64,000 bases of DNA from Escherichia coli (lineage in GTDB: Bacteria; Pseudomonadota; Gammaproteobacteria; Enterobacterales; Enterobacteriaceae). Position numbers and translations under genes: made by a program. The DNA is taken from assembly GCF_022846255.1 (NCBI RefSeq), contig NZ_AP025682.1; one strand, written 5' to 3'. The first letter of the stretch is position 1, and each line of letters begins with the position of its first letter. Shown one piece after another: positions 1 through 28,073 of the stretch. The notes below the pieces were generated by a model. That model worked only from the letters and a program-made list of their open reading frames with translations. It made no database searches and was not told where the DNA came from.

Positions 1-1938
1 GATTATGGCATCTGCGTGCGTACAGGCCATGGCTGGCTGGCGCTGGACTGTGATAGCGAAGATGAAGACATTCAGGCAGATATTCGTAAAACGCTTGTGC
101 AACTTCTGGGTGAGTTGCCGCCGCGACGCTGGCGAGCAAACAGTAATAAGTGTCTGTATCTGCTGGCCGTTGATGGTGATTTCCGTAAGCGTATCCATCG
201 CCTGGCGGGGGATATGGGCATTATCGAGTTGCTGGCGAACGGGCAGCAGTTCGTTGCCTGCGGTACGCACAGCAGCGGCGCGCGTATTGAATGGGACGGC
301 GGTTTGCCGGATGAACCTCCGGCTATTACTGGTGAGCAGCTTGAAACGCTGTGGCAGCGCCTGGCTGAACAACTCCCTGTGTCGGTAACCACCGAAGCGG
401 GCAACACGAAGATGCGCGACCGATCAGCATTCACGCCCGGCGCGACGGATGATACAGCTGAATATCTTGATGCCAATGGCTGGACGCTGCTGGATGGCGC
501 AAATGGTGAACGATATATCCGCTGTCCGTTTGAAGACGGCCACAGTAGCGGGGGCGATCCAACAAGCACAGTTTATTTTCCTGCGGGAACCGCGGGCTTT
601 GAGCAGGGGCATTTTAAATGCCTGCATGCCAGTTGTGCGCATCGTGATGACGGAGATTTCCTTAATGCCATCGGGATCCGCAACGACGATTTCGAAGATC
701 TGACCAGCACCGAAGTGGCGGAACCTTTACCGCTGCCTGCTTTCGAGCGTGATAAATGGGGGCGTATCGAGGCAACCATCAGCAACGCAGCAAAAGCAGT
801 AGTACGCCCTGATTTTGTGGACATCGATATTCGCTTTGACCAGTTCCGCGACGAAATCATGTTTGCCCCTGCAGGATCCGGACAATGGCGGGCATTCACC
901 GATGCGGATTATGCGCGCCTGCGCATCACGATGGAAAAGCGGGGATTTAAACCTGTTGGTCGTGAACTTATTCGCGATGTGGTGTTACTTGCAGCCGATG
1001 AACAACCATTCGATTCAGCGATCACCTGGCTGAACGGACTGGAGTGGGATGGCGTGCCGCGCATCGAATGTTTCTACCATACGCACTTCGGTACAGCCGA
1101 CACGCCTTATACCCGTGCGGTGTCTATGTACATGTGGACCGCGTTGGCGGGGCGAGTACTGGAGCCAGGCATCAAAGCGGATATGGTGCCGATCCTCGTT
1201 GGTCCGCAGGGCTGCGGTAAGTCTTCCGGAGTAGAGGCACTGAGCCCTGATCCTGCGTTTTTTACTGAAATCTCTTTTGCCGAAAAAGACGATGATCTCG
1301 CTCGAAAAATGCGTGGTCGGCTGGTGGCAGAGATTGGTGAACTGCGCGGACTTAATACCAAAGAGCTGGAGTCAATCAAAGCGTTTGTGACGCGTACTCA
1401 CGAAAACTGGATCCCGAAATACCGGGAGTTCGCCACCCAGTTTCCTCGTCGCCTGGTGTTCGTTGGTACCACCAATGAGGACGAATTCCTTGCGGACAAG
1501 ACTGGTAACCGTCGCTGGCTCCCCGTGGAAGTGTCGAAAGTCGACGTGAAAGCGATAAAAAGAGATCTCCTTTTACTTTGGGCTGAGGCTCGTGAGGTGT
1601 TTCAGCGTCTGGGGGGTATCCAGTTCCGTGAGGCTGAACAACTGGCAGCGAGTGTCCATGAACAGTACACCATCAAGGATGCTTGGCTTGAAACGGTAGA
1701 GAAATGGCTCGACACGCCAGACCTGATGACTAATGAACTTCCGCGAAATTGCGAATTTTTACGCGCAAGTGATGTTTTGCGTGATGCGATTGGGCTAAAT
1801 CCTGACCGCATCGGAAAACGCGAAGAAATGCGAATTAGTAATGTTTTGCAAAATTGCGGGTATAAGCGTGCCCAAAGGCGAATTGGGGGGAAAAAATGCA
1901 AGGTTTGGGAACCGCTGGAACCACGCGGAACCACCTAA
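1..1938 (+). CDS. Phage DNA primase / replication protein, P-loop NTPase (VirE / P4-primase C-terminal-like); 5'-partial
   Basis: Reading frame is open from nt 1 (no stop before the GTG at 16), so the gene starts upstream of the window. Walker A-like GPQGCGKSS, Walker B-like LVFVGTTNE, N-terminal CxxC/HxxC cluster. Confidence 0.6.
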   Translation, partial: DYGICVRTGHGWLALDCDSEDEDIQADIRKTLVQLLGELPPRRWRANSNKCLYLLAVDGDFRKRIHRLAGDMGIIELLANGQQFVACGTHSSGARIEWDGGLPDEPPAITGEQLETLWQRLAEQLPVSVTTEAGNTKMRDRSAFTPGATDDTAEYLDANGWTLLDGANGERYIRCPFEDGHSSGGDPTSTVYFPAGTAGFEQGHFKCLHASCAHRDDGDFLNAIGIRNDDFEDLTSTEVAEPLPLPAFERDKWGRIEATISNAAKAVVRPDFVDIDIRFDQFRDEIMFAPAGSGQWRAFTDADYARLRITMEKRGFKPVGRELIRDVVLLAADEQPFDSAITWLNGLEWDGVPRIECFYHTHFGTADTPYTRAVSMYMWTALAGRVLEPGIKADMVPILVGPQGCGKSSGVEALSPDPAFFTEISFAEKDDDLARKMRGRLVAEIGELRGLNTKELESIKAFVTRTHENWIPKYREFATQFPRRLVFVGTTNEDEFLADKTGNRRWLPVEVSKVDVKAIKRDLLLLWAEAREVFQRLGGIQFREAEQLAASVHEQYTIKDAWLETVEKWLDTPDLMTNELPRNCEFLRASDVLRDAIGLNPDRIGKREEMRISNVLQNCGYKRAQRRIGGKKCKVWEPLEPRGTT

Positions 1939-2090
1939 AAGAGAAGGTGGTTCCACCTTGCAGACCTTGTGGCAAGCGGGGCGGAACCACTGGAACCACC
2001 TTTCTACTAGAAACCCCATATATATATATAAGTCGATTGAGGGAAAGGTTAGGAAAAGGTGGTTCCAGGTGGGGGCAGGTGGTTCCACTC
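1905..2090. repeat. Iteron array flanking an AT-rich tract; putative phage origin of replication
   Basis: At least 8 copies of GGAACCAC(C) in both orientations (direct about 1908, 1917, 1927, 1983, 1992; inverted GGTGGTTCC about 1946, 2058, 2078) around (TA)n at 2018-2030. Overlaps the 3' end of the primase gene. Confidence 0.5.
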
Positions 2091-2217
2091 CGCATTAGCA
2101 ACTTTTTGCATGTTGATACATGCAATATGCGAATCGGAACTGCGTTATCCACACCCACGGATAAACAGACGTGGTTCTCAGAAAATTTTTTCGTAGCAAA
2201 ACGTAGAGGTCAGAGCT

Positions 2218-2640
2218 ATGCGTAATATTCAACAGGTTTTAGAGCGCTGGGGTGGCTGGGCAGCGAGTGAAGGTGGTAGCGTCTACTTTCCTCCTGTTGC
2301 AGCCGGGTTTAAGAATCTGCTACCCGCGACGCAGTCTGGAAGGCTGAAATGCAGTGACAATGACGGTCTTATCATCAACTCCGCTATGAGCTGCCTGAAG
2401 AAAAAAGATCCGTATCTGTGCACGCTCCTTGAGTGGCATTACGTCCAGGCCATGCCCGTGCGGGCGATGGGTGAGAAGCTCGGCGTATCTCACACCCACG
2501 TTCTGAAGAGGCTTCAGGCGGCAGAGGGATTTATTGACGGTTGCTTAGCCATGCTGGATGTGGTGCTCGAAATGGATCAGTCGGTTCAGTCAAAGCCTCA
2601 GGCGATCAGGACTTTGCGTAGGAGCTGCTCGGCGGCATAA
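2218..2640 (+). CDS. Late-gene antitermination protein Q (QuuD-like small Q family)
   Basis: 140 aa; N-terminus MRNIQQVLERWGGWAA and C-terminal LKRLQAAEGFIDGCLAMLDVVLEMD resemble my recollection of E. coli prophage QuuD-type Q; sits immediately upstream of the lysis cassette; SD present. Confidence 0.7.
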   Translation: MRNIQQVLERWGGWAASEGGSVYFPPVAAGFKNLLPATQSGRLKCSDNDGLIINSAMSCLKKKDPYLCTLLEWHYVQAMPVRAMGEKLGVSHTHVLKRLQAAEGFIDGCLAMLDVVLEMDQSVQSKPQAIRTLRRSCSAA

Positions 2641-2671
2641 TATCCAGCAATCAATCACGTAAGGGAACCAG

Positions 2672-3013
2672 ATGGCTCTGATCAGCGTTCGCAACAGATT
2701 TGAAAGCTTCATGGAACAGAGGTACCCAGACCTGTCGTTGCAGGTCAAAGGTAATATTAGCGCATCAATGAAGGCTCAACTTGGCATCAGGATTGAACGA
2801 GAATTGTACAGTGAAGATGTTACTTACTGTGATTCAGCAGTTCAGTTGATGTGGACACTCTTTCAGGCAGGTGTTCTGGCCGAACGAAGAGCTACCAGCG
2901 TTACGCTTCCTGCGCTGAAGGCAAAGCCGGATAGCTTATACGATGCGGGTTATAACGAAGGTATTCAGGACTGTCGTAAACATCTGACGGCATCAGGCAT
3001 CAAGGTAAGATAA
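2672..3013 (+). CDS. Hypothetical protein, 113 aa, between Q and the lysis genes
   Basis: ORF starts 31 nt after Q stop and is followed by a hairpin terminator; no recognisable motif. Confidence 0.4.
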   Translation: MALISVRNRFESFMEQRYPDLSLQVKGNISASMKAQLGIRIERELYSEDVTYCDSAVQLMWTLFQAGVLAERRATSVTLPALKAKPDSLYDAGYNEGIQDCRKHLTASGIKVR

Positions 3014-3080
3014 AAAATAGTTGTGGAATTCCAAAAAGCCGATTAGCCTGATATCCGTTGAAAACAGTTCATCACGAAGA

Positions 3081-3104
3081 GGCTTCCGCAAGGGGGCCTT
3101 TTTT
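3081..3104 (+). terminator. Rho-independent terminator (GGCUUCC-GCAA-GGGGGCC + U6)
   Basis: 7-bp stem including G-U pairs, GCAA tetraloop, T-run 3099-3104, downstream of the 113-aa ORF. Confidence 0.4.
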
Positions 3105-3109
3105 ATTGC

Positions 3110-3334
3110 CCCATTCTGGGGAAAAGTTAATAAAACAGGGCTTTCGCTGCGAAAAAACGCTATGCAGTTTTTGCCCTTTTTTATGCACCTTTTATTCACT
3201 CGAATTTCGTCATTCTGGACCACTTAAGTTGATTAAATAGGCCTTTCATCGCAAATCTATTGCGAGCGGGGATCGTGTGGTTCCTATAACGTACATTATG
3301 TTAAATCACCTTCTTTTTTAACAAATTTAACAAG
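3110..3334 (+). promoter_or_regulatory. Putative Q-dependent late promoter / qut region (inferred by position only)
   Basis: Non-coding, AT-rich stretch between the Q-operon terminator and a strong terminator just upstream of the holin, analogous to lambda pR'-tR'. No confident -35/-10 assignment. Confidence 0.3.
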
Positions 3335-3357
3335 GTTCGCTATGGCGAACTTTTTTT
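3335..3357 (+). terminator. Rho-independent terminator, candidate tR'-like terminator upstream of lysis genes
   Basis: Perfect hairpin GTTCGC-TATG-GCGAAC (3335-3350) followed by T7 (3351-3357). Confidence 0.55.
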
Positions 3358-3458
3358 GTATTCAGGGCCCACCGAAGGACGGCTCATAACCCAATCCTAC
3401 GGGCGTATACGCAGGGCCCGCCTTTCAACAACACCCCGTAATGGCGGAGGTGGGAAGT

Positions 3459-3800
3459 ATGAAAATGCACAATGCTCCTCATTCCTGGCCTGACTTACTG
3501 GAACTCTTACAAAGTTGGTGGCGTGGAGATACGCCGTTGGGCGCAGTGGTTATGTCAATTGTTATGGCTGGTTTGCGCATTGCCTATTTTGGCGGTGGCG
3601 GCGGCTGGAAACGAAAAACGCTTGAGATTTTGCTCTGTGGTGCTCTGACGCTGACCTTTGCATCCGCTCTTGAGTATGTTGGATGGCCTAAATCGCTTTC
3701 TGTTGCCATTGGTGGCGGCGTTGGGCTGATCGGTGTCGATGCTATTCGTGGGGCTGCAATGCGAGTAATCGGTAACAAATTTGGTAGCTCGAAGGAGTAA
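3459..3800 (+). CDS. Holin (lambda S-like) with M-K-M dual-start motif
   Basis: Hydrophobic segments and charged C-terminus; start MKMHN at 3459/3465 preceded by GGAGGTGG; the ORF track's start at 3441 is also possible. Directly upstream of endolysin. Confidence 0.7.
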   Translation: MKMHNAPHSWPDLLELLQSWWRGDTPLGAVVMSIVMAGLRIAYFGGGGGWKRKTLEILLCGALTLTFASALEYVGWPKSLSVAIGGGVGLIGVDAIRGAAMRVIGNKFGSSKE

Positions 3801-3803
3801 TTT

Positions 3804-4280
3804 ATGCAGGAACTAAATCCCCAGCGTAAAGCTTTCCTGGATATGTTGGCCTGGTCAGAAGGAACGGATAACGGGCGACAACCGACACGTAATCACGGTT
3901 ATGACGTTATCGTCGGAGGTGAGTTGTTCACTGATTACTCCGATCACCCTCGCAAACTTGTCACGCTAAACCCGAAGCTTAAATCAACAGCTGCAGGCCG
4001 GTATCAACTTCTTTCACGCTGGTGGGATGCCTACCGCAAGCAGCTTGGCCTGAAAGATTTTTCGCCAGAAAGTCAGGACGCTGTGGCGCTGCAGCAGATT
4101 AAAGAGCGTGGCGCTTTACCGATGATTGACCGTGGCGATATTCGTCAGGCAATCGACCGTTGCAGCAATATCTGGGCGTCGTTACCTGGTGCAGGTTACG
4201 GTCAGTATGAACATAAAATCGGTGACCTGATTTCCAGGTTTAAAGATGCTGGTGGGGTGGTAAATGAAGCTGACTTATAA
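3804..4280 (+). CDS. Endolysin, lambda R-like lytic transglycosylase
   Basis: 158 aa; near-identical over most of its length to lambda R as I recall it (NPQRKAFLDMLAWSEGTDNGRQPTRNHGYDVIVGGELFTDYSDHPRKLVTLNPKLKST). Confidence 0.9.
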   Translation: MQELNPQRKAFLDMLAWSEGTDNGRQPTRNHGYDVIVGGELFTDYSDHPRKLVTLNPKLKSTAAGRYQLLSRWWDAYRKQLGLKDFSPESQDAVALQQIKERGALPMIDRGDIRQAIDRCSNIWASLPGAGYGQYEHKIGDLISRFKDAGGVVNEADL

Positions 4281-4788
4281 GATTGTCATCGCGGCATTTT
4301 TCTTCTCTGTCTTTGGGGCGCTCGTCTGGTCTGCAAACCATTACCACAGCAAGTATCAGGCAGAAAAGTTGCGGGCTGATAAAGCGGAAGGTGAAGCTGA
4401 ATATCAAGGGAAAGTGATAGCTAATCAGGCATTAAACTTCAATCGTTTTAACCAGATAGCAGAAAACGCAAGCCGATTAAATTCTCTGGTCGACATCGGT
4501 CACGAGAAGACAGTCATCAAATACCGTGAGGTTCTGCTCCGTGAAAAGAACTGTGATTTCCCTGTTCCTGTTGATATTGCTGTCGGGTTGCTCAACTACG
4601 CGAACCGTTTACGTGCCAGCGCATTGCACGCCGATTCCGGGGACATTGACTCAGCCGGTGATCGTGCCACTACCACCAGAACGTTGACATATTGCCAGGC
4701 TGTTCTGTGGATTAACCCACTGTTGGCAGCCATCGAGAAGGCGAATAACCAGTTGGCTGGTGTCCGACAAATAGAACAGTCCCGGTAA
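4264..4788 (+). CDS. i-spanin (Rz-like)
   Basis: N-terminal signal-anchor helix then a long charged helical region; overlaps endolysin stop; contains an embedded +1-frame lipoprotein ORF. Confidence 0.65.
   Translation: MKLTYKIVIAAFFFSVFGALVWSANHYHSKYQAEKLRADKAEGEAEYQGKVIANQALNFNRFNQIAENASRLNSLVDIGHEKTVIKYREVLLREKNCDFPVPVDIAVGLLNYANRLRASALHADSGDIDSAGDRATTTRTLTYCQAVLWINPLLAAIEKANNQLAGVRQIEQSR
4541..4687 (+). CDS. o-spanin (Rz1-like outer-membrane lipoprotein) embedded in the Rz frame
   Basis: Translation from GTG at 4541: VKRTVISLFLLILLSGCSTTRTVYVPAHCTPIPGTLTQPVIVPLPPER; lipobox LLSGC, Pro-rich C-terminus; not in the supplied ORF track (under 60 aa). An in-frame GTG at 4526 is an alternative start. 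Confidence 0.6.
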   Translation: MKRTVISLFLLILLSGCSTTRTVYVPAHCTPIPGTLTQPVIVPLPPER

Positions 4789-4849: not shown

Positions 4850-5422
4850 ATGACTAAGAAGCTGAAAGCAAAACACGAGGTGTTTTGTCGCGAGTTTCTT
4901 GTCGATCTGAATGCTACACAAGCAGCTATTCGCGCAGGCTACGTCTCCAGGCGAGCACATGTTACGGGGGCTGAACTATACGGTAAACCTGAGATACGCG
5001 CCCGTATTAACGAGCTAAAGCAGGAGCGTATTGATCAACTGGGCATTGATGCGAATTATGTGCTGATACGACTGGTTGAGATCGACAGGCTCGATGTGGC
5101 TGACATCCTGGAGGACGATTTAAGTATTAAGCCTCTGTCTGCGTGGCCGGAATCGTGGCGTCGGTACCTGAGTGGATTTAACCTCGCTGAAATGTTTGAG
5201 GGGCGAGGAGATGACAGAGAAATGGTCGGGATCCTTAAAAAGATTAAGTGGCCTGATAAGGTTAAAAACCTTGAGTTGCTTGGGCGTCATGTTTCTGTTC
5301 AGGCGTTTAAAGACAACGTCAAAAATGAAGTGACTGGCGCTGATGGAGGACCCGTCAGAACAGAAATTACCAACTTAACGCCGGAGCAGGCTGCAGAGGC
5401 GTATAGAAAAATGATGGGCTAA
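4850..5422 (+). CDS. Terminase small subunit
   Basis: 190 aa; N-terminal [16 protein letters not shown] motif typical of phage small terminase; directly upstream of large terminase. Confidence 0.8.
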
Positions 5423-5424
5423 GT

Positions 5425-7047
5425 ATGCCGTTACCATTCCCCTTCGATTTTAAACATCCTGATTACCAGATGGTTTTTGAATGGCGGATGGAACGCCTGC
5501 AGCGCATTCGCCAGAATCCTGAAATATTGCCTGCACTAAAACAGTTTTACCGAACTAATCCGGCTCAGTTCATCATCGACTGGGGCATGACAACGGACCC
5601 GCGTAATATTGATTATGGCCTGCCGGTGACCATTCCGTTTTTACTCTTCCCTAAGCAGGAGGAGTGGATCCACTGGATTATGGAACGCTGGGGCAATCGG
5701 GAGAATGGTATTACCGAAAAATCCCGTGAAATGGGGCTCAGTTGGACCGCGATCGGACTGGCATGTTCGCTTTGTCTCTTCAACAAAGAAATGGTTATCG
5801 GTTTCGGCTCCCGTAAAGAGGAATACGTCGACAGCACCGGTGACCCGAAAGCATTGTTCTGGAAGGCGCGCAAGTTCGTGGAAACACTGCCTGTAGAGTT
5901 TCGCGGTTCGTGGAGCGAGAAGAAGCACGCGCCATATATGCGTGTTGAGTTTCCTGAAACTGGTGCCGTTATCAAAGGCGAGGCTGGCGATAATATTGGT
6001 CGTGGTGACCGTACCACGCTTTATCTGGTTGATGAGGCTGCATTCCTTCAGCGTCCTCTGCTGATTGATGCGGCGTTGTCACAAACGACGCGTTGCCGTA
6101 TCGACCTGAGTTCAGTTAACGGCATGGCGAACCCGTTCGCTCAGAAGCGTCATGGCGGGAAGATACCAGTATTCACATTCCACTGGCGGGATGATCCTCG
6201 CAAGGATGAAGAGTGGTATCGCAGGGAATGCGAGAAAATCGATAATCCGGTGGTGGTGGCACAGGAACTTGATCTGAACTACAGCGCATCAGCGGAAGGC
6301 GTCCTGATTCCATCCGAATGGGTACAGGCTGCCGTTGATGCGCATATCAAACTGGGTATCCAGCCAACAGGCAAACGACTTGGCGCGATGGATGTCGCCG
6401 ACGAAGGCAGGGACAAAAATGCCTTTTCCACCCGTCATGGCTTCCTCCTGGAAAATGTGCGGGAATGGTCCGGTGTGGGCAGCGACATTTATCAGTCCGT
6501 CGAGAAGGTTTTCGGCTTTTGCGAACAGGATAACCTCGAAGAGTTTCGCTTTGACGAGGACGGGCTGGGCGCTGGCGTTCGCGGCGATGCACGCGCTATC
6601 AACGAACTGCGTAACGCTGCGCGTCGACCGTCAATACTCGCCACACCGTTTCGAGGTAGTGGCGCGGTATTTGATCCGGATGATGAAGCTGTTCGCGGGG
6701 ACAACGGGCAAGCCGCACGTCTGAACAAGGACTTCTTCGCTAACGCCAAAGCCCAAAGCTGGTGGCGGTTACGTAAACTTTTTCAGAATACCTGGCGCGC
6801 CGTGGTTGAAGGTATGGCTTACAACCCGGACGAAATCATCTCAATCAGCAGTAGCATGGCACTCAAAGATAAACTCATCATCGAGCTTTCGCAGCCGACC
6901 TATTCCATTAATGGTGTGGGAAAAATCGTTATTGATAAACAGCCTGATGGGACCCGGTCGCCAAATCTTGCCGACTCGGTGATGATCAACTATGCCCCAA
7001 TGAATTCAGCCCTGAACATCTGGGAGTTGCTAGGGAGACAGGCCTGA
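5425..7047 (+). CDS. Terminase large subunit
   Basis: 540 aa; Walker B-like LYLVDEAAF; position between small terminase and portal. Confidence 0.75.
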
Positions 7048-8513
7048 TGGCACGAAACAAACAAGCCCTGCGGCGAACTGCGCAGGCCACAGCTGATGGT
7101 TATGAGAATTTTATCGCCCGCGTAGGGATGCAGACACCTAACCAGCACTCAGCATCCACCTACCGGGCTAATTTCACCAGTCGTAACCGCATGCTGGTGG
7201 AATGGTCCTATCGTTCTTCCTGGATCATCGGCGAAGCAGTCGATGCTATCCCGGATGATATGACCCGCAAAGGCATTCGCATCACTTCGGAAATTGATGC
7301 AAAAGATCGTGGCATTCTCGAATCACAACTGGATGAGTTGCAAATCTGGGATGCGCTGAATGACGTGCTGAAATGGTCGCGCCTCTACGGCGGCGCGGTG
7401 GGTTTCATCATGATTGAGGGGCAGGCACCAATGACCCCGCTGCGACCCGAAACCATCGGTAAGGGCAAGTTTAAGGGGATTCTCCCGCTCGACCGCTGGA
7501 TGATTGACCCGGTACTGACCCGCCGCATTAAAGATATGGGGCCGGACCTGGGTAAACCTGAGTTTTATGATGTGGTGACCACAGCAACGGGAATTCCTGC
7601 CTGGCGCATTCATCACAGTCGCCTGATTCGCTTTGATGGCGTCACGCTGCCATTTCAGCAGAAGATGACCGAGAACGAATGGGGAATGTCGGTTGTAGAG
7701 CGTATCTGGGATCGTCTTACCGCGTTCGACAGCGCTACTGTCGGTGCGGCGCAGCTGGTCTACAAGGCGCATTTGCGTACCTACAGCGTGGAGAAGCTAC
7801 GCGAGCTTATCGCACTTGGTGGTCCTGCGTATGAAGCGTTGCTGAAGAATATTGACCTGATTCGACAGTTCCAGAGCAATGAAGGCATGACTCTCATGGA
7901 CTCGCGGGATAAGTTTGAAACCCATCAGTACAGCTTCAGTGGTCTGGATGACATCCTTTCACAGTTTGCAGAACAGATTAGTGGCGCTGTTGGTATCCCA
8001 CTGGTGCGGTTGTTCGGACAGTCCCCGAAGGGATTTTCTACCGGCGATGCAGACCTTGCCAACTATTACGACCGGGTAAGTTCGTTGCAGGAGAGGCGTT
8101 TACGTCTTCCGGTGCGGCGGATACTGGACATCATGCATCGTTCGGAACTTGGCAAGCCGCTCCCGGATGATTTTACATTTGAGTTTAACCCGCTCTGGCA
8201 AATGTCTGATGTCGATCGTTCAACGGTGGCATTAAATACCACCAACGCAATCAGTACAGCGCTGGGTGATGGTCTGATGACACTGAAAGCTGCTATGACT
8301 GATTTGCGCGAAAATTCTGACGTAACCGGCATCGGGGCATCCATTACCGACGAGGACATCGAGAATGCCGAAGACGAAGCGCCGCCCGGCATCGGCGAAC
8401 CTGATGACGAACCGCAGGAACCGTCAGGCGGAAATCCGCTATCGAACCAGCCTACGCAGGATAGCGCGGGCGGTCGGGGACATCGTAAATGGTCGCTACG
8501 ATGGTTCAAATGA
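7047..8513 (+). CDS. Portal protein (putative)
   Basis: 488 aa; follows large terminase with ATGA overlap; acidic C-terminus. Confidence 0.65.
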   Translation: MARNKQALRRTAQATADGYENFIARVGMQTPNQHSASTYRANFTSRNRMLVEWSYRSSWIIGEAVDAIPDDMTRKGIRITSEIDAKDRGILESQLDELQIWDALNDVLKWSRLYGGAVGFIMIEGQAPMTPLRPETIGKGKFKGILPLDRWMIDPVLTRRIKDMGPDLGKPEFYDVVTTATGIPAWRIHHSRLIRFDGVTLPFQQKMTENEWGMSVVERIWDRLTAFDSATVGAAQLVYKAHLRTYSVEKLRELIALGGPAYEALLKNIDLIRQFQSNEGMTLMDSRDKFETHQYSFSGLDDILSQFAEQISGAVGIPLVRLFGQSPKGFSTGDADLANYYDRVSSLQERRLRLPVRRILDIMHRSELGKPLPDDFTFEFNPLWQMSDVDRSTVALNTTNAISTALGDGLMTLKAAMTDLRENSDVTGIGASITDEDIENAEDEAPPGIGEPDDEPQEPSGGNPLSNQPTQDSAGGRGHRKWSLRWFK

Positions 8514-20510: not shown

Positions 20511-20750
20511 ATGTTCGGATTTGATAAATTAATAACTCCAAAAATCATCAACGTTCTGTATGGCATCACAATGTTACTTCTGGTTGTTGCCGCCATTATA
20601 ACGTTTGTTAATGGGAAGGCTGCTGGCGCTTTAGTGCTTTTGTTATGTGCTGTATTTTGCCGAATATTCTTTGAGTGCATCATGGTTTCATTTAAAAACA
20701 ATGAGTATCTTCGCCGAATAGCTGAAGCGTTAGAAGCAAACAAGCAGTAA
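20511..20750 (+). CDS. Small membrane protein (two predicted TM helices); moron
   Basis: 79 aa; two hydrophobic helices (ITMLLLVVAAIITFV, ALVLLLCAVFCRIFFECIMV); AAGGA SD; followed by a strong terminator. Confidence 0.55.
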   Translation: MFGFDKLITPKIINVLYGITMLLLVVAAIITFVNGKAAGALVLLLCAVFCRIFFECIMVSFKNNEYLRRIAEALEANKQ

Positions 20751-20768
20751 TGAAACTTCAATAATGAA

Positions 20769-20790
20769 CCCGCCACCCGGCGGGTTTTTT
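20769..20790 (+). terminator. Rho-independent terminator
   Basis: CCCGCC-ACCC-GGCGGG hairpin followed by T6. Confidence 0.6.
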
Positions 20791-20809
20791 GCTTTCTGGA
20801 GCCTACTAA

Positions 20810-21562
20810 ATGGCAGTATCTGACCAGACCCGCAGCGGCGACCTTGCCGAAACATTCAAATCTGAACGGGAAACAACAAAGAACCAGATCCGTGTCGCCT
20901 TGCCTGGCATTGTTCAGTCATTCGATCCCGACGCGGTGACGGCGGTTGTGCAGCCAGCTATCCGTTCGGTTGAAAAGGATAACGACGGTAACCGCATTAC
21001 CAAAAATTACCCGTTGCTGGTGGATGTGCCAGTGGTATTTCCGCGCGGCGGAGGCTGTACGTTGACTTTTCCGGTTAAAGCCGGGGATGAGTGTCTTGTC
21101 GTTTTTGCCGATCGTTGTATTGATTTCTGGTGGCAGAGCGGTGGGATACAGGAGCCGGTCGATGACAGAATGCATGATTTATCGGATGCGTTTTGTATTG
21201 CCGGTCCCCAGTCGCAGGCGAGGAAGATTAGCGGTATTAATACCAGTGCCACACAGTTGCGTAGTGACGACGGCAGCACCTATTTTGAGCTTAATCCTGA
21301 TACCCGGAAAATTAAAATTGTCGCCCCGGGTGGTCTTGATGTGGTTGCCCCTCTGGCTGATTTTTCTGAGAAAGTAACCATTCATGGCCTATTAACCTGG
21401 ATGGGGGGCATGGTGGGGTCTGTTGTTTCTGGTGTGGCTTCAAAAATCACTGGTGCTGTTGAGTTCTTGGGGAGCGTTAAGGCTAACGGCAAGCCAATCG
21501 ATGATACGCACACTCATGGCGGTGTTCAGCGCGGTGGAAGCAATACCGATGGGGTAAACTGA
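20810..21562 (+). CDS. Putative baseplate spike protein (gpV / Mu gp45-like)
   Basis: 250 aa; C-terminal THTHGG motif; position before gp46/J-like genes. Confidence 0.45.
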   Translation: MAVSDQTRSGDLAETFKSERETTKNQIRVALPGIVQSFDPDAVTAVVQPAIRSVEKDNDGNRITKNYPLLVDVPVVFPRGGGCTLTFPVKAGDECLVVFADRCIDFWWQSGGIQEPVDDRMHDLSDAFCIAGPQSQARKISGINTSATQLRSDDGSTYFELNPDTRKIKIVAPGGLDVVAPLADFSEKVTIHGLLTWMGGMVGSVVSGVASKITGAVEFLGSVKANGKPIDDTHTHGGVQRGGSNTDGVN

Positions 21563-21915
21563 TGCGATACAGACGTGAAGACGCCGATGGCGATTACACC
21601 TTTGGCAGCGGTGATGACACCTGGCTGATTAACTCACCGGAGGCCGTGGCGCAGGCGGTAAAAACGCGATTCGAATTGTGGTATGGGCAATGGTTTCTCG
21701 ACACCACCGAGGGGACTCCGTGGATCCAGTCCGTGCTGGGCAGGCAAAAACCGGAAACTTACAACCTGGCGATCAGAAAACGCATTCTGGAAACGCGGGG
21801 CGTTAAATCAATCCTCTCTTTCAATACGACGGTGGATACCACGACCCGACGTGTCATGTTTTCCGCTGAAATCGACACTCTCTATGGAATAACGACTGTT
21901 ACATCGGAGGCGTAA
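21562..21915 (+). CDS. Putative baseplate protein (Mu gp46 / gpW-like)
   Basis: 117 aa; ATGA-coupled to flanking baseplate genes. Confidence 0.4.
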   Translation: MRYRREDADGDYTFGSGDDTWLINSPEAVAQAVKTRFELWYGQWFLDTTEGTPWIQSVLGRQKPETYNLAIRKRILETRGVKSILSFNTTVDTTTRRVMFSAEIDTLYGITTVTSEA

Positions 21916-23114
21916 TGGCTCTGAACCTTGATTCTCTCGGTTTATCTGCAAAGGTAACCGCGGAGGGGATCAGTGCGCCTGATTATCAGACGATACTCAG
22001 CACCCTGATTAGCTATTTTCAGCAGATTTATGGCAGTGATGCCTACCTCGAACCGGACAGCAAAGACGGCCAGATGGTGGCTCTGACGGCGCTGGCGATT
22101 CATGATGCCAATAATATGGCGATAACTGTCTACAACTGTTTTTCACCGGCAACCGGCTATGGGGCTGCACTGACCAGTAACGTGAAAATAAATGGTATTT
22201 CACGTAAAGGCGCGACGAACTCTACGGTTGATTTGCTTCTTACAGGAACTGCCGGAACAACCATCATTAATGGCAGCGTGAAAGACAGTAATAATGTGAT
22301 ATGGCGTTTGCCTGCTTCAGTGGTGGTCGGCGTGGATGGTACAGTGATGGCGACCGCAACATGTTCCGTCAGTGGTGCAGTGGCGGCGCTGGCTGGAACT
22401 ATCACTGAAATTAATACGCCAACCCGTGGCTGGGTTTCGGTAACTAATCCTGCTGCGGCTACTGTTGGCTCTCCGGCAGAAACTGATGCTGAGTTACGTA
22501 TCCGCCAGTCGCAAAGTGTTGCGTTGCCATCAATAACCCCATTTGAAGCACTGGATGGTGCTGTTTCTAATGTTACCGGTGTAACCCGCCACAAACTCTA
22601 TGAAAACGATACTGGTTCGGAGGACGGTAACGGGTTACCGCCACACTCTGTTGCTGTAATTGTGGATGGCGGTGATGTGACGGATATTGCTCAGGCTATC
22701 AGAGGGAATAAAGGCCAGGGGACAGCCACTCACGGTACAACATCCGTTACGGTTCCGGATAAATACGGCAATCCCCATGTAATCAAATTCTCGCGTTCCA
22801 GTGATGTGCCTGTTTATGCCCGGATTAAATTAAAAGTTTTTACGGGTTATACCTCACAGATAGGGCAGCAGATCCAGCAGGCTATTTCCGACTATATCAA
22901 TAGTTTGACGATTGGTGATTCGGTCCTTTTAAGTCGCATTTACTCACCGGCGAATCTTGGCGTGGTGAGTGGCGGGAATGCACGCTATTACGATATTCAG
23001 GAACTGACGATTGGGAAATCCCCGGGGGCTTTGTCGTCATCAAACATTGATATCAGATACAACGAATCTGCGTCCTGTACCCCGGAAAATATCGTTATAA
23101 CGGTGGAGTCATGA
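21915..23114 (+). CDS. Putative baseplate J-like protein (Mu gp47-like)
   Basis: 399 aa; position and size in Mu-like baseplate order. Confidence 0.5.
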   Translation: MALNLDSLGLSAKVTAEGISAPDYQTILSTLISYFQQIYGSDAYLEPDSKDGQMVALTALAIHDANNMAITVYNCFSPATGYGAALTSNVKINGISRKGATNSTVDLLLTGTAGTTIINGSVKDSNNVIWRLPASVVVGVDGTVMATATCSVSGAVAALAGTITEINTPTRGWVSVTNPAAATVGSPAETDAELRIRQSQSVALPSITPFEALDGAVSNVTGVTRHKLYENDTGSEDGNGLPPHSVAVIVDGGDVTDIAQAIRGNKGQGTATHGTTSVTVPDKYGNPHVIKFSRSSDVPVYARIKLKVFTGYTSQIGQQIQQAISDYINSLTIGDSVLLSRIYSPANLGVVSGGNARYYDIQELTIGKSPGALSSSNIDIRYNESASCTPENIVITVES

Positions 23115-23791
23115 GCAAATACACCGAACTAATCACGAACTACCACGCCACCAAACCTAAATTTCTTGCGCATGTTGATCTGATGACCCGGCCGCTTATT
23201 GATGCTGCGGCGGCCACCAGAGGGCTGATTACTGCATTTGATATTGACTCTGCGGTTGGTGTGCAACTTGACATTCTGGGATTGTGGATCGGACGTAGCC
23301 GTGTTGTCAGCCAGCCTATCTCAGGTGTCTATTTCAGCTGGGATACCGACGGGCTTGGATATGATCAGGGGGTATGGCAGGGACCATACGATCCTGATTC
23401 CGGATACATGTACCTCAGCGATGAAACTTATCGTGTCATTCTTAAAGCGAAGATTGCGATTAATAACTGGGATGGACGGAATGATTCGCTTCCGGCAATT
23501 CTTGACGCTGCAACAGCAGGATCCGGGCTGCGAATGCAGATAGTCGATAACCAGGACATGACGATATCGGTCTGGGTCTTTCCTGATACTGATATTTCAG
23601 ATGTATCGCGTGAGTTAATTGCGGCAATTAAACAGGGGTATCTCACAGTAAAAGCCGCCGGGGTATGGGCGGGTGGCATTGAAACACCTTCGGTGGAAAC
23701 CCCATCGGAAGGCTCAAAATTTTTTGGTTTTGATATGGATAACGAATTCATCAGTGGTTTTGATGTAGGAGCATGGGGAGTATTACTCTGA
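23111..23791 (+). CDS. Putative tail protein (Mu gp48-like), immediately upstream of tail fibre
   Basis: 226 aa; ATGA overlap with the tail-fibre start. Confidence 0.45.
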
Positions 23792-24609
23792 TGGCGAAAA
23801 ATGACTTTAAAGCGTTTGCAACGGATCGAAATGCCAATGTTATATCGCAGGAGGAATGGGAAGCGTTGCCCGCGCTTGTATCCGGATTTACAGCAGGGAA
23901 AGCCTCCAGTGCGCAAGTCAATAAGGTTATTCGGCAGGCCAGCTTTATTGCTGCAGCTCTGGCCCAGTTTGTAAGTGATAAAACGCAACGGGATGTGCTT
24001 GATAATGGTGATCTGCCCGGTTTTGTTGAATTGCTGGGATCGGGGTTTGCTGTTGAATACCTGAGCCGCAAGAATCCGTTTGGTGATATCAAATCGGATG
24101 GCACGGTGAAAACGGCTCTCGAAAACCTTGGTTTGGGAGAAGGCTCTGCATTACCTGTTGGTGTGCCTGTTCCGTGGCCCTCCGCAACCCCGCCAACGGG
24201 CTGGCTGAAATGCAACGGCGCTGCCTTTGATAAGGTGAAATATTCCCATCTTGCTACAGCATATCCATCAGGGAAACTACCTGATCTCCGTGGTGAGTTT
24301 ATTCGTGGATGGGATGACGGGCGTGGTATTGATGCAGGACGTGCTTTATTGAGCATTCAGACTGGGATGCTGGAAAAACACCGCCATATTGTTGTTGCCA
24401 ACGATGGGTATGATTCAAAAGAGGAATGGGAACTGGCGACAATCTTCAGAAGAGCATATACGCAAGGCCGGGGGCTTGATGCTGCCGATGCCGGAGGAAC
24501 TCTGATTCCATCACCAACGCTACATACACGAGGGAGTATTGGTAACACAGGTGGGAGCGAAACCCGTCCACGAAATATTGCATTTAACTATATCGTGAGA
24601 GCTGCATAA
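23791..24609 (+). CDS. Tail fibre protein: constant N-terminal part fused to variable C-terminus in the current orientation of the invertible segment
   Basis: C-terminal collar-like motif [16 protein letters not shown]; gene spans the left crossover site at 24116-24141; likely start ATG 23791 (the ORF track's ATG 23773 is in frame). Confidence 0.7.
24116..24141. repeat. Left crossover site of the invertible segment (hix/gix-like 26-bp site)
   Basis: CTCTCGAAAACC-TT-GGTTTGGGAGAA; its inner half-site is a perfect inverted repeat of 26069-26080. Confidence 0.65.
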
Positions 24610-25211
24610 TGGATAAAGCCGTATTAAATAGCGAACTTATTGCCACGAAGGCGGGGAATATTACCGTCTATAACTATGATGGTGAAACACGGGAATATAT
24701 TTCCACTTCAAATGAATATCTTGCCGTTGGTGTCGGTATCCCGGCATATTCCTGTTTAGATGCTCCTGGCACATATAAGGCTGGTTATGCAATCTGCCGT
24801 TCAGTAGATTTAAACTCATGGGAATATATGCCAGACCATCGCGGTGAAATTATCTATAGCACCGAAACAGGAGAAGCAAAAGAAATCACAGCTCCGGGTG
24901 ATTACCCTGAAAATACAACCACTATCGTCCCGTTAACGCCATATGATAAATGGGATGGTGAGAAATGGGTGACAGATTCTGAGGCACAACACGGTGCCGC
25001 AGTAGAAGCGGCAGAAGCACAGCGCCAGTCACTGATTGATGCAGCAATGGCTTCCATCGGTCTGATTCAGCTGAAATTACAGGCCGGACGGAAGCTGATG
25101 CAGGCAGAAACAACCCGGCTTAACGCTGTGCTGGATTACATTGACGCGGTGACGGCAACAAATACCAGCACAGCGCCGGATGTCATCTGGCCTGAACTGC
25201 CGGAGGCGTAG
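24609..25211 (+). CDS. Tail fibre assembly protein (U-like)
   Basis: 200 aa; ATGA-coupled to tail-fibre stop. Confidence 0.7.
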   Translation: MDKAVLNSELIATKAGNITVYNYDGETREYISTSNEYLAVGVGIPAYSCLDAPGTYKAGYAICRSVDLNSWEYMPDHRGEIIYSTETGEAKEITAPGDYPENTTTIVPLTPYDKWDGEKWVTDSEAQHGAAVEAAEAQRQSLIDAAMASIGLIQLKLQAGRKLMQAETTRLNAVLDYIDAVTATNTSTAPDVIWPELPEA

Positions 25212-25626
25212 GCCATTCAATATCTGGCGCACAGGAAGTATCGACCAGTTCCAGTGCGTCCAGATAATCCAGCCATAAATTATATTGCTCCAGCTCGTTA
25301 CCTTTCAGACGACCAATAGCAGCTTTGCCAGGCCACTGATGGGTATTGATGTAAGTATTGGCTTCTGAAACCAAAGATATTTTTTTCATTTCAGCCATCA
25401 ACACCTCATCCTCTTTTGAAGGCGGTGGGGAATTAATCCATATTGGCCGTCCTGAACTGTCAGCGCCAATTTCTTTCCCTTCTGGATGCAGCCCAAGAAA
25501 TTGCTCATATGTTTCTCGGGTAATTTCAATAACATCATCTGGAAGCGTTCCCGCATCCTCATATTCTGGAAACAATTCTTGTAGATAAAAACTTTTACTT
25601 CCGGGTGAAAAGAATACTGAGTTCAT
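25183..25626 (-). CDS. Alternative tail fibre assembly protein (U'-like)
   Basis: 147 aa on the opposite strand inside the invertible segment; 3' end converges with tfa. Confidence 0.65.
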   Translation of the reverse strand: MNSVFFSPGSKSFYLQELFPEYEDAGTLPDDVIEITRETYEQFLGLHPEGKEIGADSSGRPIWINSPPPSKEDEVLMAEMKKISLVSEANTYINTHQWPGKAAIGRLKGNELEQYNLWLDYLDALELVDTSCAPDIEWPTPPAVQAR

Positions 25627-25628
25627 TA

Positions 25629-26080
25629 TTACCGTCCAATGATTAACGCTGAGACGCTGGTATCTGAAGGAAAGGCTGCATTCAGTGGTTTGTCGACTTT
25701 GAACACAATCGTATTATTCCCCCTGACAGCGGCAAAAGAACAAACCGCAGTCGCGTATGAACCTGTAATATTACTGGATACACCACCATAAGCTGTTGTT
25801 GATACCAGAGGGATAACGCCCAGCACCTTATTAGGAAATACAAAGGGCAATGTGGCTGTGGCAATATAAGACTTATTAGAGCCTGTGATGGCATAAGCAT
25901 TATCAGTCATTCCATTCATCGCCACCGGGCCGCTTATACTTACAGTAACCATCTGAATGATTAGCCCGTCAGGTTGACGAATCACAAAATTTCCATTGCC
26001 ACCAGTAACCGTCCAGAAAGACATATCAGGGATTTGGTTTTCCCCGTTGCCCACATTCCGTTTTGCCGCTTCTCCCAAAC
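25629..26080 (-). CDS. Alternative tail-fibre variable C-terminal segment (Sv'-like); no own start, expressed only after inversion
   Basis: Open frame runs from the right crossover site; encodes GLGE at the site, matching LGLGE at the left site in the expressed fibre. The ORF-track start at 26123 lies outside the segment. Confidence 0.6.
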
Positions 26081-26094
26081 CAACGTTTATGAAA
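26069..26094. repeat. Right crossover site of the invertible segment
   Basis: TTCTCCCAAACC-AA-CGTTTATGAAAA. Confidence 0.65.
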
Positions 26095-26149
26095 ATGCAG
26101 AAATAACGAGCAAATGGCATCATTCCTGCTTTTGTCAGGGAGATCTACC

Positions 26150-26704
26150 ATGCTTATTGGCTATGTACGCGTATCAACAAATGACCAGAATACCGATCTA
26201 CAACGTAATGCGTTGAACTGTGCAGGATGCGAGCTGATTTTTGAAGACAAGATAAGCGGTACAAAGTCCGAAAGGCCGGGACTGAAAAAACTGCTCAGGA
26301 CATTATCGGCAGGTGACACTCTGGTTGTCTGGAAGCTGGATCGGCTGGGGCGTAGTATGCGGCATCTGGTCATTCTGGTTGAGGAGTTGCGCGAACGTGG
26401 CGTTAATTTTCGCAGCCTGACGGATGCTATTGATACCAGCACACCGATGGGGCGTTTTTTCTTTCATGTGATGGGGGCCCTGGCTGAAATGGAACGAGAA
26501 CTGATTGTTGAACGAACAAAAGCTGGACTGGAAGCTGCTCGCGCACAGGGACGAATTGGTGGACGTCGTCCCAAACTTACACCAGAACAATGGGCGCAGG
26601 CCGGGCGACTAATTGCATCAGGAGTTCCTCGCCAGAAGGTGGCGATCATTTATGATGTTGGCGTATCGACTTTGTATAAGAAGTTTCCGGTCGGAGATAA
26701 ATGA
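26150..26704 (+). CDS. pin: Serine-recombinase DNA invertase (Pin/Gin/Hin family)
   Basis: 184 aa from MLIGYVRVSTNDQNTDLQRNAL; catalytic Ser in VRVSTNDQ; C-terminal HTH; AGGGAG SD; adjacent to the invertible segment. Confidence 0.85.
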   Translation: MLIGYVRVSTNDQNTDLQRNALNCAGCELIFEDKISGTKSERPGLKKLLRTLSAGDTLVVWKLDRLGRSMRHLVILVEELRERGVNFRSLTDAIDTSTPMGRFFFHVMGALAEMERELIVERTKAGLEAARAQGRIGGRRPKLTPEQWAQAGRLIASGVPRQKVAIIYDVGVSTLYKKFPVGDK

Positions 26705-26784
26705 AACCGTAGCACGTCGTATGCAAGAACGTGCCACGGCTGGCTGATAAGCTTGTAAAAATATTGAACAGGGAGTGGAGCATT

Positions 26785-27432
26785 CTATGAAGCTAATTTG
26801 TTTAATTTCATTTGTAGTGACTTTACTTCTTGGTCGATAATGTCGAATCCCTTATTGACAGCATCTCTTAGCTCTGCATCAATATTTTTTATCCCTTGAG
26901 CATAATCTACCATTACATTTATTTTTGCATCATGTAATCTCTTATACATGGTTTTATCTTTGTTATTGTCTGCCATGCCAATAAGGATTTTTTCATAATC
27001 CTCAATGAGTTTGTTGTTTCCTTTAAATGATTGTATTAATGAGCGTGAATATGTGTATATGTTAATTATTGAGTCTCTAGCAGAATCATTTAGTTTTGCA
27101 ATGACATTCGCATTTTGCTCATAGAATGTGAAATTATCATCCCCTACAGGGAATGTGAGAATCAACATTTGTCCCGGTTTTATATTATCAATGTGTGTTT
27201 TCATCCTTTTATTATATAAATTGATTAGGGTGAAAACTTCTCCCTTAACTCCTTTTAATACTGAAAGTTGTAATTCAAGGGATTCTCTTTCTGTCTCTAC
27301 TTTAGACAGCTTAGCTTGTTGGGTAACTCCTTTTAGGGTAAACCATCCGCCAATAAGAGTACCAACTAGAGCTGTGAGGGAGGAGGATAACCATCCAGGT
27401 ATGCTATTTAAAAGATTACTAAATTCACTCAT
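26785..27432 (-). CDS. Hypothetical membrane-anchored protein (N-terminal TM helix plus charged helical region); cargo gene
   Basis: 215 aa; hydrophobic segment WLSSSLTALVGTLIGGWFTL then K/E-rich region; AT-rich composition unlike flanking DNA. Confidence 0.5.
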   Translation of the reverse strand: MSEFSNLLNSIPGWLSSSLTALVGTLIGGWFTLKGVTQQAKLSKVETERESLELQLSVLKGVKGEVFTLINLYNKRMKTHIDNIKPGQMLILTFPVGDDNFTFYEQNANVIAKLNDSARDSIINIYTYSRSLIQSFKGNNKLIEDYEKILIGMADNNKDKTMYKRLHDAKINVMVDYAQGIKNIDAELRDAVNKGFDIIDQEVKSLQMKLNKLAS

Positions 27433-27490
27433 TATAAGTACTCGCTAATATTGAACGATATATATATCAAATTATTATAAAACTCGTCAG

Positions 27491-27769
27491 CTACTGGAGC
27501 AGGCTACCTGAACTTCGATCTATTCCTGCATCCATATAGTTGATGGTCTTCTGGAGCTCTTCGATTAGGGCAACAGCTTTTGCTCGAGAAATGCATATTA
27601 GTTGATCCGGAAATTCTTGTAAGGGCCAGTTTGGTATACAGGCCATGTTATCAGTGAAGGATGCAGACAAGTAAACTTCATTGGTAACCAGAGAATAGCT
27701 TACCTCAAAATTGGTGAGTTCCGGCAAACTGCTAACGTTTGACTCTTTTCTGCGCATAATATTATCCAT
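27491..27769 (-). CDS. Hypothetical small protein (cargo gene; start uncertain, ORF could extend to 27919)
   Basis: 92 aa from MDNIMRRKE; the longer 142-aa frame includes a PPP stretch encoded by a C10/G10 tract; no strong SD at either start. Confidence 0.35.
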   Translation of the reverse strand: MDNIMRRKESNVSSLPELTNFEVSYSLVTNEVYLSASFTDNMACIPNWPLQEFPDQLICISRAKAVALIEELQKTINYMDAGIDRSSGSLLQ

Positions 27770-27851
27770 GACTGTAATTATGTACAGGTGATGGTCTTCA
27801 ATTTCGAAGAGGGAGTCAAGGGGGAGTCTCAAATGAACCGTTATAGAAAAA

Positions 27852-27861
27852 GGGGGGGGGG
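27852..27861. repeat. Homopolymeric tract G10 (C10 on the coding strand of the cargo gene)
   Basis: Ten consecutive G at 27852-27861. Confidence 0.9.
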
Positions 27862-28073
27862 ATCTTTGTGTTGCTGAACTTATGCAAAATTTTTTTGCAC
27901 CATAAATCCAACAACACATTCAATAACACATTGCTGTATCACTATGAAAATAAATGTGTTTTTATTTGATTTCACACATATCACAATTGATGCATTTTTT
28001 AGTGATTAACAGCGCCATAAGGAAACTCTCAAAACAACACAAACCGGGCGGGCATTATACGCGCATTCTTTAC

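Follow-up and report, generated by a model that had tools for sequence, protein, structure and literature searches.

A probable temperate myovirus prophage within the ferredoxin gene yfhL of Escherichia coli: boundaries, modules and relatives

A stretch of 64,000 nucleotides from Escherichia coli assembly GCF_022846255.1 (contig NZ_AP025682.1), hereafter called the window, was analysed for its phage content. Positions 1-27988 of this 64-kb window very probably constitute the right two-thirds of a temperate myovirus prophage of approximately 41.4 kb, integrated in the ferredoxin gene yfhL by site-specific recombination involving a tyrosine integrase. Phage genes on the plus strand form a dense and nearly continuous array from position 1 to about 26700, two open reading frames (ORFs) on the minus strand follow, and phage DNA reaches to 27970; the GC content decreases to 0.361 in 27001-28000. 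The phage genes discussed below are those of 1-27988, and strain AREA_492 (locus L001) serves as reference for the empty integration site.

The right end of the prophage was located by megablast analysis of positions 26000-31000 against 5,426 complete E. coli genomes, 5,425 of which matched. The match starts at query base 1972, corresponding to window position 27971, in all matched genomes except 79. Prophage-free AREA_492 displays 100% identity from 27971 rightwards, and nothing alignable leftwards. The empty site is uninterrupted in 5266 of the 5425 genomes and interrupted in about 159, with 79 genomes carrying this right end next to yfhH. All relative copies examined (10/10) display the same junction at the right attachment site (attR) as the window. 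The chromosome is collinear from yfhH on and contains no phage genes beyond it; pgpC (yfhB), tadA, mltF and purL follow, in an order shared with strain MINF_1D to at least 51002. An earlier reading of the letters alone (the sequence-only reading) had proposed a mosaic prophage with its right end abutting yfhH and its boundary in 27920-28073, and the alignments together with the family scans bear this out, the proposed boundary being correct to within 100 bp. It had also asked whether the AT-rich segment 26705-28073 occurs at the same chromosomal position in prophage-free strains. This is not the case, as 26705-27970 is missing there; the AT-rich cargo in this interval is absent from 5266 of 5425 genomes and is therefore phage DNA.

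In AREA_492, the gene directly downstream of yfhH, on the same strand, is yfhL, which encodes a 4Fe-4S ferredoxin of 86 amino acids. In pairwise alignments, window and empty site are identical to the right from 27971 (TTCACACAT...) on, and the left junction of the prophage in MINF_1D is identical to the empty site as far as ...ATCACAATT. These two alignments overlap in an 18-bp core, TTCACACATATCACAATT, common to the empty site, attR and the left attachment site (attL). On the coding strand the core reads AATTGTGATATGTGTGAA, and it is located at the first CxxCxxC cysteine motif of YfhL. Since it equals codons 11-16 of yfhL, the phage sits inside this gene, 86-103 bp beyond the yfhH stop codon. 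The core sequence occurs once at the empty site. Strain DEC5B, with a complete element at 1352985-1394395, has two direct copies spaced 41,393 bp from each other, and alignment places window position 1 some 13.0 kb rightwards of the left one. An insertion "immediately downstream of the yfhH stop", as stated previously, is thus correct in that the prophage adjoins yfhH, but the actual target lies inside the 5' end of yfhL, a gene that had been missed. Likewise, the view that mechanism and attachment core are unreadable holds for the window alone; the attR core is nevertheless present and recognisable by comparison with other genomes.

As expected from the sequence-only reading, ARAGORN detected no tRNA in the window (count 0), and a scan of approximately 40 ORFs yielded 0 tyrosine integrases, the sole recombinase being a serine invertase of 184 amino acids. 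A location of integrase and attL to the left of the window is supported by complete relatives. An intact, annotated yfhL of 86 amino acids surrounds the left core copy in MINF_1D, DEC5B and RMDEC465. This is a hybrid gene (MSLLITKRC...), the first ten codons of which are phage-derived; 11 of these 30 nucleotides differ from the native gene, and only A2S and K8R change the protein. A divergently oriented tyrosine-type recombinase of 465 amino acids is located 214 bp from the hybrid yfhL in the same three strains. Its match to PF00589 amounts to 30 bits (cutoff 27.1), with catalytic residues read by eye only. Judging from these relatives, the genome studied here presumably carries the same integrase and attL. 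Some 13 kb leftwards of the window, at attL, recoded first ten codons from the phage would keep the 86-amino-acid YfhL frame intact beside the integrase. At attR, what remains of the host gene is its native promoter with codons 1-16, a dead stub that points into the prophage.

The integrase and its attachment site appear to form a mobile cassette. Among 50,697 phage records, one carries this integrase, namely the Serratia siphovirus vB_SspS_OS31 (76% identity). Its integrase also has 465 amino acids and is followed by an annotated attachment site and then a reverse-strand yfhL 5' end, MALLITKRCINCDMC, at the same position relative to int. In contrast, OS31 is a lambdoid siphovirus (Hendrixvirinae) of another host genus, and its core differs at several bases (TCGCACATGTCGCAGTTG). 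The shared cassette of int, attachment site and yfhL 5' end thus moves between unrelated phage types and genera. A phage attachment site (attP) of 463 bp was reconstructed from the window arm and the MINF_1D arm. It contains 6 AACACAWW motifs, compared with 0.13 expected, which may represent arm-type integrase sites.

Phages 21 and e14 in icd, and Gifsy-1 in lepA, carry a replacement for the gene end that they displace. The yfhL prophage is alike in that the core lies inside an open reading frame and a phage-borne duplicate of the displaced end keeps the frame whole. In icd the 3' end is replaced, whereas here it is the 5' end; hence, yfhL is also cut off from its native promoter. Both icd and lepA have been cited as phage integration sites within genes (PMC3603311), and Stx2b (Shiga toxin) prophages at yfhL have been reported (PMC10675304, PMC12029490).

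The nearest deposited sequences are Escherichia phages vB_EcoM-606R2, 611R5 and 683R1 (ON470579, ON470588, ON470593); 81% of the window's first 25 kb can be aligned to vB_EcoM-606R2, with a nucleotide identity of 97%. Equivalent prophages are present in O55:H7 strains DEC5B and CB9615, enterotoxigenic E. coli (ETEC) H10407, O103:H2 12009 and MINF_1D. This group shares with the window 97-99% identity over most of its length, the gene order, the yfhL/yfhH junction and the core. It differs in a set of swapped cassettes (the region of the late antiterminator Q and a 113-amino-acid gene, the islet 20116-20810, fibre tips, iteron words and cargo), as well as in the orientation of an invertible segment and the length of a poly-G tract. 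A literature search for the name vB_EcoM-606R2 returned no papers. One end of the GenBank "complete genome" of vB_EcoM-606R2 (ON470579.1 1-8348) carries host genes, namely tadA, pgpC and yfhH, and no integrase was detected in this record by tblastn. With host genes included and the integrase missing, the record and its sisters appear to be prophage regions predicted with wrong limits, not packaged DNA.

The composition of the phage was assessed by local tblastn of 38 window proteins against the three reference genomes of Mu, lambda and SEN34 (E<1e-3). SEN34 (genus Brunovirus) matches 27 of the 38 proteins, including 25 consecutive genes from the large terminase subunit (TerL) to DUF2612 at 64-96% amino acid identity. 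Lambda matches 4 of 38: the endolysin displays 89% identity to R, and the fibre and chaperones 30-45% to Stf/Tfa. Mu matches 2 of 38, namely the invertase (78% to Gin) and the J-like protein (25.7% to gp47 over 171 amino acids, E 3.5e-4). Besides Stf/Tfa, no lambda structural protein was matched, and a sheath, a tube and a baseplate J cluster are present instead. No window protein matches Mu A or B, and the insertion site is fixed.

The head and neck genes belong to the families PF06381, PF04233, PF09979, PF22758, PF09950 and PF23961 and display 69-96% amino acid identity to SEN34; the portal is a Phage_portal_3 protein, and the capsid protein is a DUF2184 protein. The tail proteins are 65-93% identical to those of SEN34. 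The baseplate genes (PF21821, PF22759, PF18352, PF04865 and PF11041; PHROG 196/120) are 67-91% identical. TerL has no Pfam-A match at E<0.01 and is recognised only via PHROG 2 and its 96% identity to SEN34 TerL. The islet 20116-20810 within the baseplate cluster has a low GC content (0.47), and its short ORFs differ among the window, MINF_1D, DEC5B and SEN34.

SEN34 is described as a myovirus with lambda-like early genes, and its virions were seen by electron microscopy (PMC5261728). It resembles the prophage in the morphogenesis genes, in an 88-amino-acid gene next to attP and in a lambdoid late region. It has features of its own in lambda-type O/P replication, exo/bet/gam and nin genes, in an unrelated integrase of 393 amino acids with no yfhL core, and in an O-acetyltransferase gene in place of the invertible fibre segment; the early region, integrase and fibre cassette of the prophage are unrelated to those of SEN34. 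A shared attachment site was considered for SEN34 and rejected, as the integrase is unrelated and the core absent. Nucleotide alignment covers 66% of window 1-25000 at 81.7% identity to SEN34, which lies below genus level, the convention of the International Committee on Taxonomy of Viruses for genus-level whole-genome similarity being about 70%. A related urinary isolate scores 31.3 against SEN34 (PMC12945033). By sequence, the prophage therefore shares its morphogenesis module with Brunovirus and would fall outside that genus by similarity.

The replication genes differ from those of lambda. The window begins within a primase-helicase gene of the VapE/D5 type, position 1 corresponding to base 250 of the 2187-bp gene in DEC5B. 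The left arm of complete relatives encodes a family-A DNA polymerase, a DUF2800 PD-(D/E)XK nuclease, an Enc34-type single-stranded DNA-binding protein and an SNF2/DEAD helicase, and further a VRR-NUC protein and a LexA-like repressor. None of the 38 window proteins matches lambda O or P in tblastn, and O/P are likewise absent from the complete relatives. The previous description of the replication module as lambdoid is not supported by these findings.

Repeated words, GGAACCAC and GTGGTTCC, flank a conserved AACCCCATATATATATATAAGTCG core directly after the primase-helicase gene. GGAACCAC occurs 9 times in the whole window, compared with 1.7 expected window-wide, and 7 of these copies lie in 1917-2086. 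The iteron origin suggested by the sequence-only reading is thus right as to a real repeat cluster, but the layout is not that of lambda. In lambda, the iterons lie inside the O gene; the origins of the P4 and SaPI (Staphylococcus aureus pathogenicity island) types provide a comparison for a primase-helicase gene combined with iterons and an AT-rich core. The order of primase-helicase gene and iterons flanking an AT-rich core appears to resemble these P4/SaPI-type origins more than that of lambda.

The same iteron architecture is seen in relatives with other words, GTACCA in MINF_1D (L003 22790-22985) and GGTAACAG in RMDEC465 (L025 37250-37640); roughly 2,700 genomes have a match to this iteron region. 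Whole words are swapped in both orientations, so that the inverted symmetry is kept, and 16 of 54 predicted pairs change on both sides. As there are only two distinct sequence types, protein-binding iterons and a hairpin structure are not separable. The primase-helicases of the window and MINF_1D are identical save for the last 15 residues or so, which are themselves encoded by iterons. The VapE protein was considered as determinant of iteron specificity and rejected, because the proteins are identical apart from this iteron-encoded tail, yet the words differ. No cognate iteron-binding protein is evident from the sequences.

The late switch and lysis genes are lambdoid, in agreement with the previous proposal of a small Q protein followed by holin, endolysin and Rz/Rz1. 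The Q protein belongs to PF06530 and the holin to PF05106, the Pfam family of lambda S; Rz is a PHROG 214 Rz-like spanin, and the embedded Rz1 is an ORF of 53 amino acids in the +1 frame with the lipobox LLSGC and a Pro-rich tail. The order of Q, terminators, holin, endolysin and Rz with embedded Rz1 is that of the lambda late region. In contrast, Q, holin and Rz have no tblastn match to lambda's own proteins, and no relation of the PF06530 Q to lambda Q was detected. The gap between Q and holin, which is the slot of stx in Stx phages, is filled by a gene of 113 amino acids and by terminator-like hairpins after it (3060-3360, with a site at 3332-3353). DEC5B has this gene and MINF_1D lacks it.

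The fibre genes form an invertible module. Its crossover sites share an AAACC..GGTTT core with Mu gix, and inversion in silico yields an in-frame fibre of 269 amino acids, followed by an alternative chaperone of 147 amino acids. In DEC5B, the segment between exactly these repeats is found in the opposite orientation, and this provides direct evidence of switching in nature. The Gin identity, the gix-type repeats and the DEC5B inversion bear out the Mu-like label that the sequence-only reading gave to this module. The arrangement corresponds to the G segment and Gin of Mu (also to Cin of P1 and Pin of e14): the invertase is located directly right of the segment, the sites lie inside the fibre gene, and two alternative fibre C-termini each have a chaperone of their own. 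The difference to Mu lies in the fibre and chaperone sequences, which have no Mu match at E<1e-3 and, at 35-45% identity, stand nearer to lambda Stf/Tfa, and in the rest of the phage, which is unrelated. The pin-type invertase is annotated as frameshifted in ETEC H10407 and O103:H2 12009 (L006, L007, positions 1-300); hence, the fibre segment of these two strains is probably locked.

Two accessory (cargo) genes follow the invertase. The first encodes a protein of 215 amino acids with one hydrophobic segment (residues 15-33). It has no match in Pfam, PHROG, PADLOC and NCBIfam, and 216 homologues, at roughly 60-75% identity, across Enterobacterales. The AlphaFold2 model (predicted local distance difference test, pLDDT, 79.7) displays a bundle of three long helices. 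Foldseek analysis of this model against PDB and BFVD returned best E-values of 0.08 and 0.07, all generic helical bundles; in the absence of a significant fold match, no functional inference is drawn for this protein. A literature search by cargo protein accession returned no papers. In Providencia lambdoid prophages, a homologous gene is located directly after a cI-like repressor gene and a gene for an HSDR_N protein, and in Enterobacter a homologue adjoins a HigBA pair. Such positions may be typical of accessory genes expressed in the lysogen.

The second cargo gene corresponds to SEN34 gene 31 (81% identity), another neighbour of attP. Neither cargo protein matches a PADLOC-DB defence model, and neither has a Pfam or NCBIfam match. 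The content of this slot is variable, as vB_EcoM-606R2 has other genes between invertase and yfhH. Two simple-sequence tracts precede the cargo genes. Counting the window, eight copies that otherwise agree at about 99% identity have G runs of 6, 7, 8, 8, 8, 9, 10 and 10 upstream of the second gene, and three further copies have an interrupted run (GGGGGAGG). This variation could be hypermutable regulation, neutral slippage or an assembly error in a homopolymer. A phase-variable coding sequence, that is an ORF of 142 amino acids (27491-27919) running through the poly-G tract, was considered and rejected: coverage by the PHROG and by the SEN34 homologue is confined to the final 88 residues, which places the tract upstream of the gene and not in it.

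A scan of 26650-28150 detected promoter-like sites at chance level and no terminator-like site, and Rfam returned no family in 1-29000. The native upstream region of yfhL (28040-28090, minus strand) stays at attR and contains a perfect TATAAT at 28054-28059 on the minus strand. This -10-like box is oriented towards the 18-codon stub and the cargo genes behind it, and no terminator is predicted on the way. One may hypothesize that integration at yfhL codons 11-16 puts the cargo genes (27769 to 26785, minus strand) under a captured host promoter in the lysogen, that the leader tracts G6-G10 and (TA)5-7 could make their expression switchable, that the 215-amino-acid protein, membrane-anchored and helical, would act on its own as a novel factor of phage exclusion or conversion, and that yfhL would come under an upstream region contributed by the phage. 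As a joint claim, this scenario appears decidedly unlikely.

The AT-rich region 26705-27970 might also be read as a chromosomal islet beside yfhH, with the true end of the phage at the invertase. The drop in GC content to 0.36, the orientation of both genes opposite to the phage late operon and the different content of this slot in vB_EcoM-606R2 and SEN34 would fit such a view. We consider it extremely improbable, given that empty sites lack the segment and are homologous to the window only from 27971 on, that it lies inside the core repeats in DEC5B, that the homologue of cargo gene 2 in SEN34 occupies an equivalent attP-adjacent place in a packaged phage genome, and that the interval from cargo gene 2 to the core holds candidate arm-type motifs. 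A hybrid of lambda and Mu, composed of a lambdoid replication and lysis half and a Mu-like tail and baseplate half, is very unlikely and largely refuted. Lambda and Mu account for few of the tblastn matches; the VapE primase-helicase, the family-A polymerase in relatives and the lack of O/P contradict its first half, while structural genes of the SEN34 type with E217/KPP10-type Pfam families, the lack of a transposase and the fixed insertion site contradict its second. This is in spite of the lambda-type traits of the late region (PF06530 Q, a holin of the lambda family, the endolysin, the Rz/Rz1 arrangement) and the Mu-type traits of the invertase, its gix-like sites and a Mu F-like domain in the minor head protein. 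For the baseplate, only the J-like protein matches Mu, weakly, and the genes from TerL to DUF2612 are of the SEN34 type. The term "mosaic" is right, and "lambdoid replication" and "Mu-like baseplate" are wrong.

A further alternative concerns activity rather than identity, in that the element may be a decaying, non-inducible cryptic prophage and not a functional phage. Frameshifts in the invertase of ETEC H10407 and O103:H2 12009 and in the DUF2800 gene of RMDEC465 point in this direction, as do the closest GenBank "phage" records, which look like predicted regions. On the other hand, all window gene models (38/38) are full length in comparison with relatives, and the invertible segment occurs in both orientations in nature. 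A temperate phage of urinary E. coli with myovirus morphology is listed with vB_EcoM-683R1 as closest match (72% coverage, 97.1% identity; PMC12945033), and electron microscopy has visualised SEN34 virions (PMC5261728). On balance, a cryptic state appears unlikely, although less so than the alternatives discussed above.

Several points weigh against a temperate prophage integrated at yfhL by a tyrosine integrase. The window itself holds neither integrase nor attL, and the left end is taken from relatives that are 97-99% identical over the visible part; the best genome match to the window in the collection amounts to 98.9%, and none is identical. The integrase of the relatives is very divergent, without NCBIfam match and without a sequence relative among solved structures (PDB). 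A scan upstream of the hybrid yfhL start in MINF_1D detected no consensus-like promoter on the relevant strand, so that "reconstitution" of yfhL holds for the reading frame only, not for expression. Moreover, yfhL is listed among genes "disrupted" by prophages (Bobay et al., PMC3603311). Any excision of this particular copy, and any formation of virions by it, is putative.

Table 1. Positions of phage, attachment-site and host features in the window (strand as +, - or not applicable,.).
Feature	Position	Strand	Evidence and remarks
VapE/D5-type primase-helicase	1-1938	+	PF05272 E 1.8e-60; PHROG 256 DNA helicase E 2e-141; first ~84 codons cut by window edge
Iteron-like cluster, GGAACCAC/GTGGTTCC words in both orientations around (TA)6 AT-rich core	1906-2090	.	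Candidate replication origin
Late antiterminator Q, 140 amino acids	2218-2640	+	PF06530 Phage_antitermQ, E 5e-42
113-amino-acid gene in Q-holin gap	2672-3013	+	PHROG 37465/343, function unknown
Lysis cassette	3441-4788	+	Holin 3441-3800, endolysin 3804-4280, Rz 4264-4788, embedded Rz1 4526-4687
Terminase, small (4850-5422) and large (5425-7047) subunit	4850-7047	+	PF03592; PHROG 2; TerL 95.7% identical to SEN34 TerL
Head and neck: portal, Mu F-like minor head protein, DUF2213, cement, major capsid, connectors, neck terminator	7047-13937	+	
Contractile tail: sheath (DUF3383), tube (KPP10-type), assembly chaperone, tape measure	13941-18159	+	PF11863, PF11681, PF21822, PF10145
Baseplate: Dit-like, plug, hub, variable island 20116-20810, spike, W-like, J-like, DUF2612	18159-23791	+	
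Expressed tail fibre (constant N-terminus and variable C-terminus, 278 amino acids) and chaperone (24609-25211)	23773-25211	+	PF07484 Collar, PF02413 Caudo_TAP
Left crossover site AAACCTTGGTTTGGGAGAAG	24123-24142	.	Fibre codon 117; 20-nt inverted repeat, 95% complementary
Silent chaperone (25183-25626) and alternative fibre C-terminus (25629-26123)	25183-26123	-	PF02413, PF21882
Right crossover site	26069-26088	.	Just upstream of invertase gene
Gin/Pin-family serine DNA invertase, 184 amino acids	26150-26704	+	PF00239 and PF02796; 78% to Mu Gin; pinE annotation in relatives
Cargo gene 1, 215 amino acids	26785-27432	-	N-terminal hydrophobic segment and long-helix bundle
(TA)n/(AT)n microsatellite	27458-27467	.	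~30 nt upstream of 215-amino-acid gene; 5-7 units among same prophages
Cargo gene 2, ~88-92 amino acids	27491-27769	-	PHROG 17793 E 3e-44, residues 55-142 of long ORF
G10 homopolymer	27852-27861	.	~85 nt upstream of cargo gene 2; only G/C run >=8 in 64-kb window
Phage arm of attR with four AACACAWW motifs	27865-27960	.	Candidate integrase arm-type sites
Remnant of host yfhL	27962-28018	-	Native codons 1-16, two phage codons and stop (MALLITKKCINCDMCEIK, then stop); intact YfhL has 86 amino acids
attR core TTCACACATATCACAATT	27971-27988	.	Equals yfhL codons 11-16 (NCDMCE); single occurrence in window
Host yfhH (MurR/RpiR regulator), first intact chromosomal gene	28074-28922	-	Annotation of 99%-identical loci

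Based on this dataset, the phage is built of five modules. An integrase and attachment-site cassette, common to a Serratia siphovirus, is presumably joined to a replication region of polymerase and primase-helicase with an iteron-flanked, AT-rich candidate origin. A lambdoid late switch (Q, holin, endolysin, Rz/Rz1) follows, and then the SEN34-type head with contractile tail and baseplate. The fifth module is a fibre cassette similar to the Mu G segment, with the Gin/Pin invertase as driver of inversion, and beyond the invertase lie the two AT-rich accessory genes, any function of which is putative.

The prophage as such is ordinary, given that sequences nearly identical to it are publicly available and that integration at yfhL has been published before. 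It belongs to an already-sequenced E. coli group, with SEN34-type morphogenesis, a published site and a standard mechanism. The current understanding of phage biology is unchanged by these results. Their value lies in fixing the exact prophage boundary, with the attachment core at 27971-27988 within yfhL, and in correcting the family assignment to SEN34-type morphogenesis with a polymerase/primase early region instead of lambda x Mu. Two cautions concern annotation pipelines: the short yfhL stub at attR is to be taken as a scar and not as a gene, and a number of the GenBank "complete phage genomes" of this kind look like prophage regions with wrongly set limits. The exchangeable iteron cassette, the cargo protein family and the hypermutable tracts nearby are the only leads with some research value. 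For the host, yfhL, which is called "disrupted" in the literature, keeps an intact reading frame in lysogens via the phage-borne 5' end.

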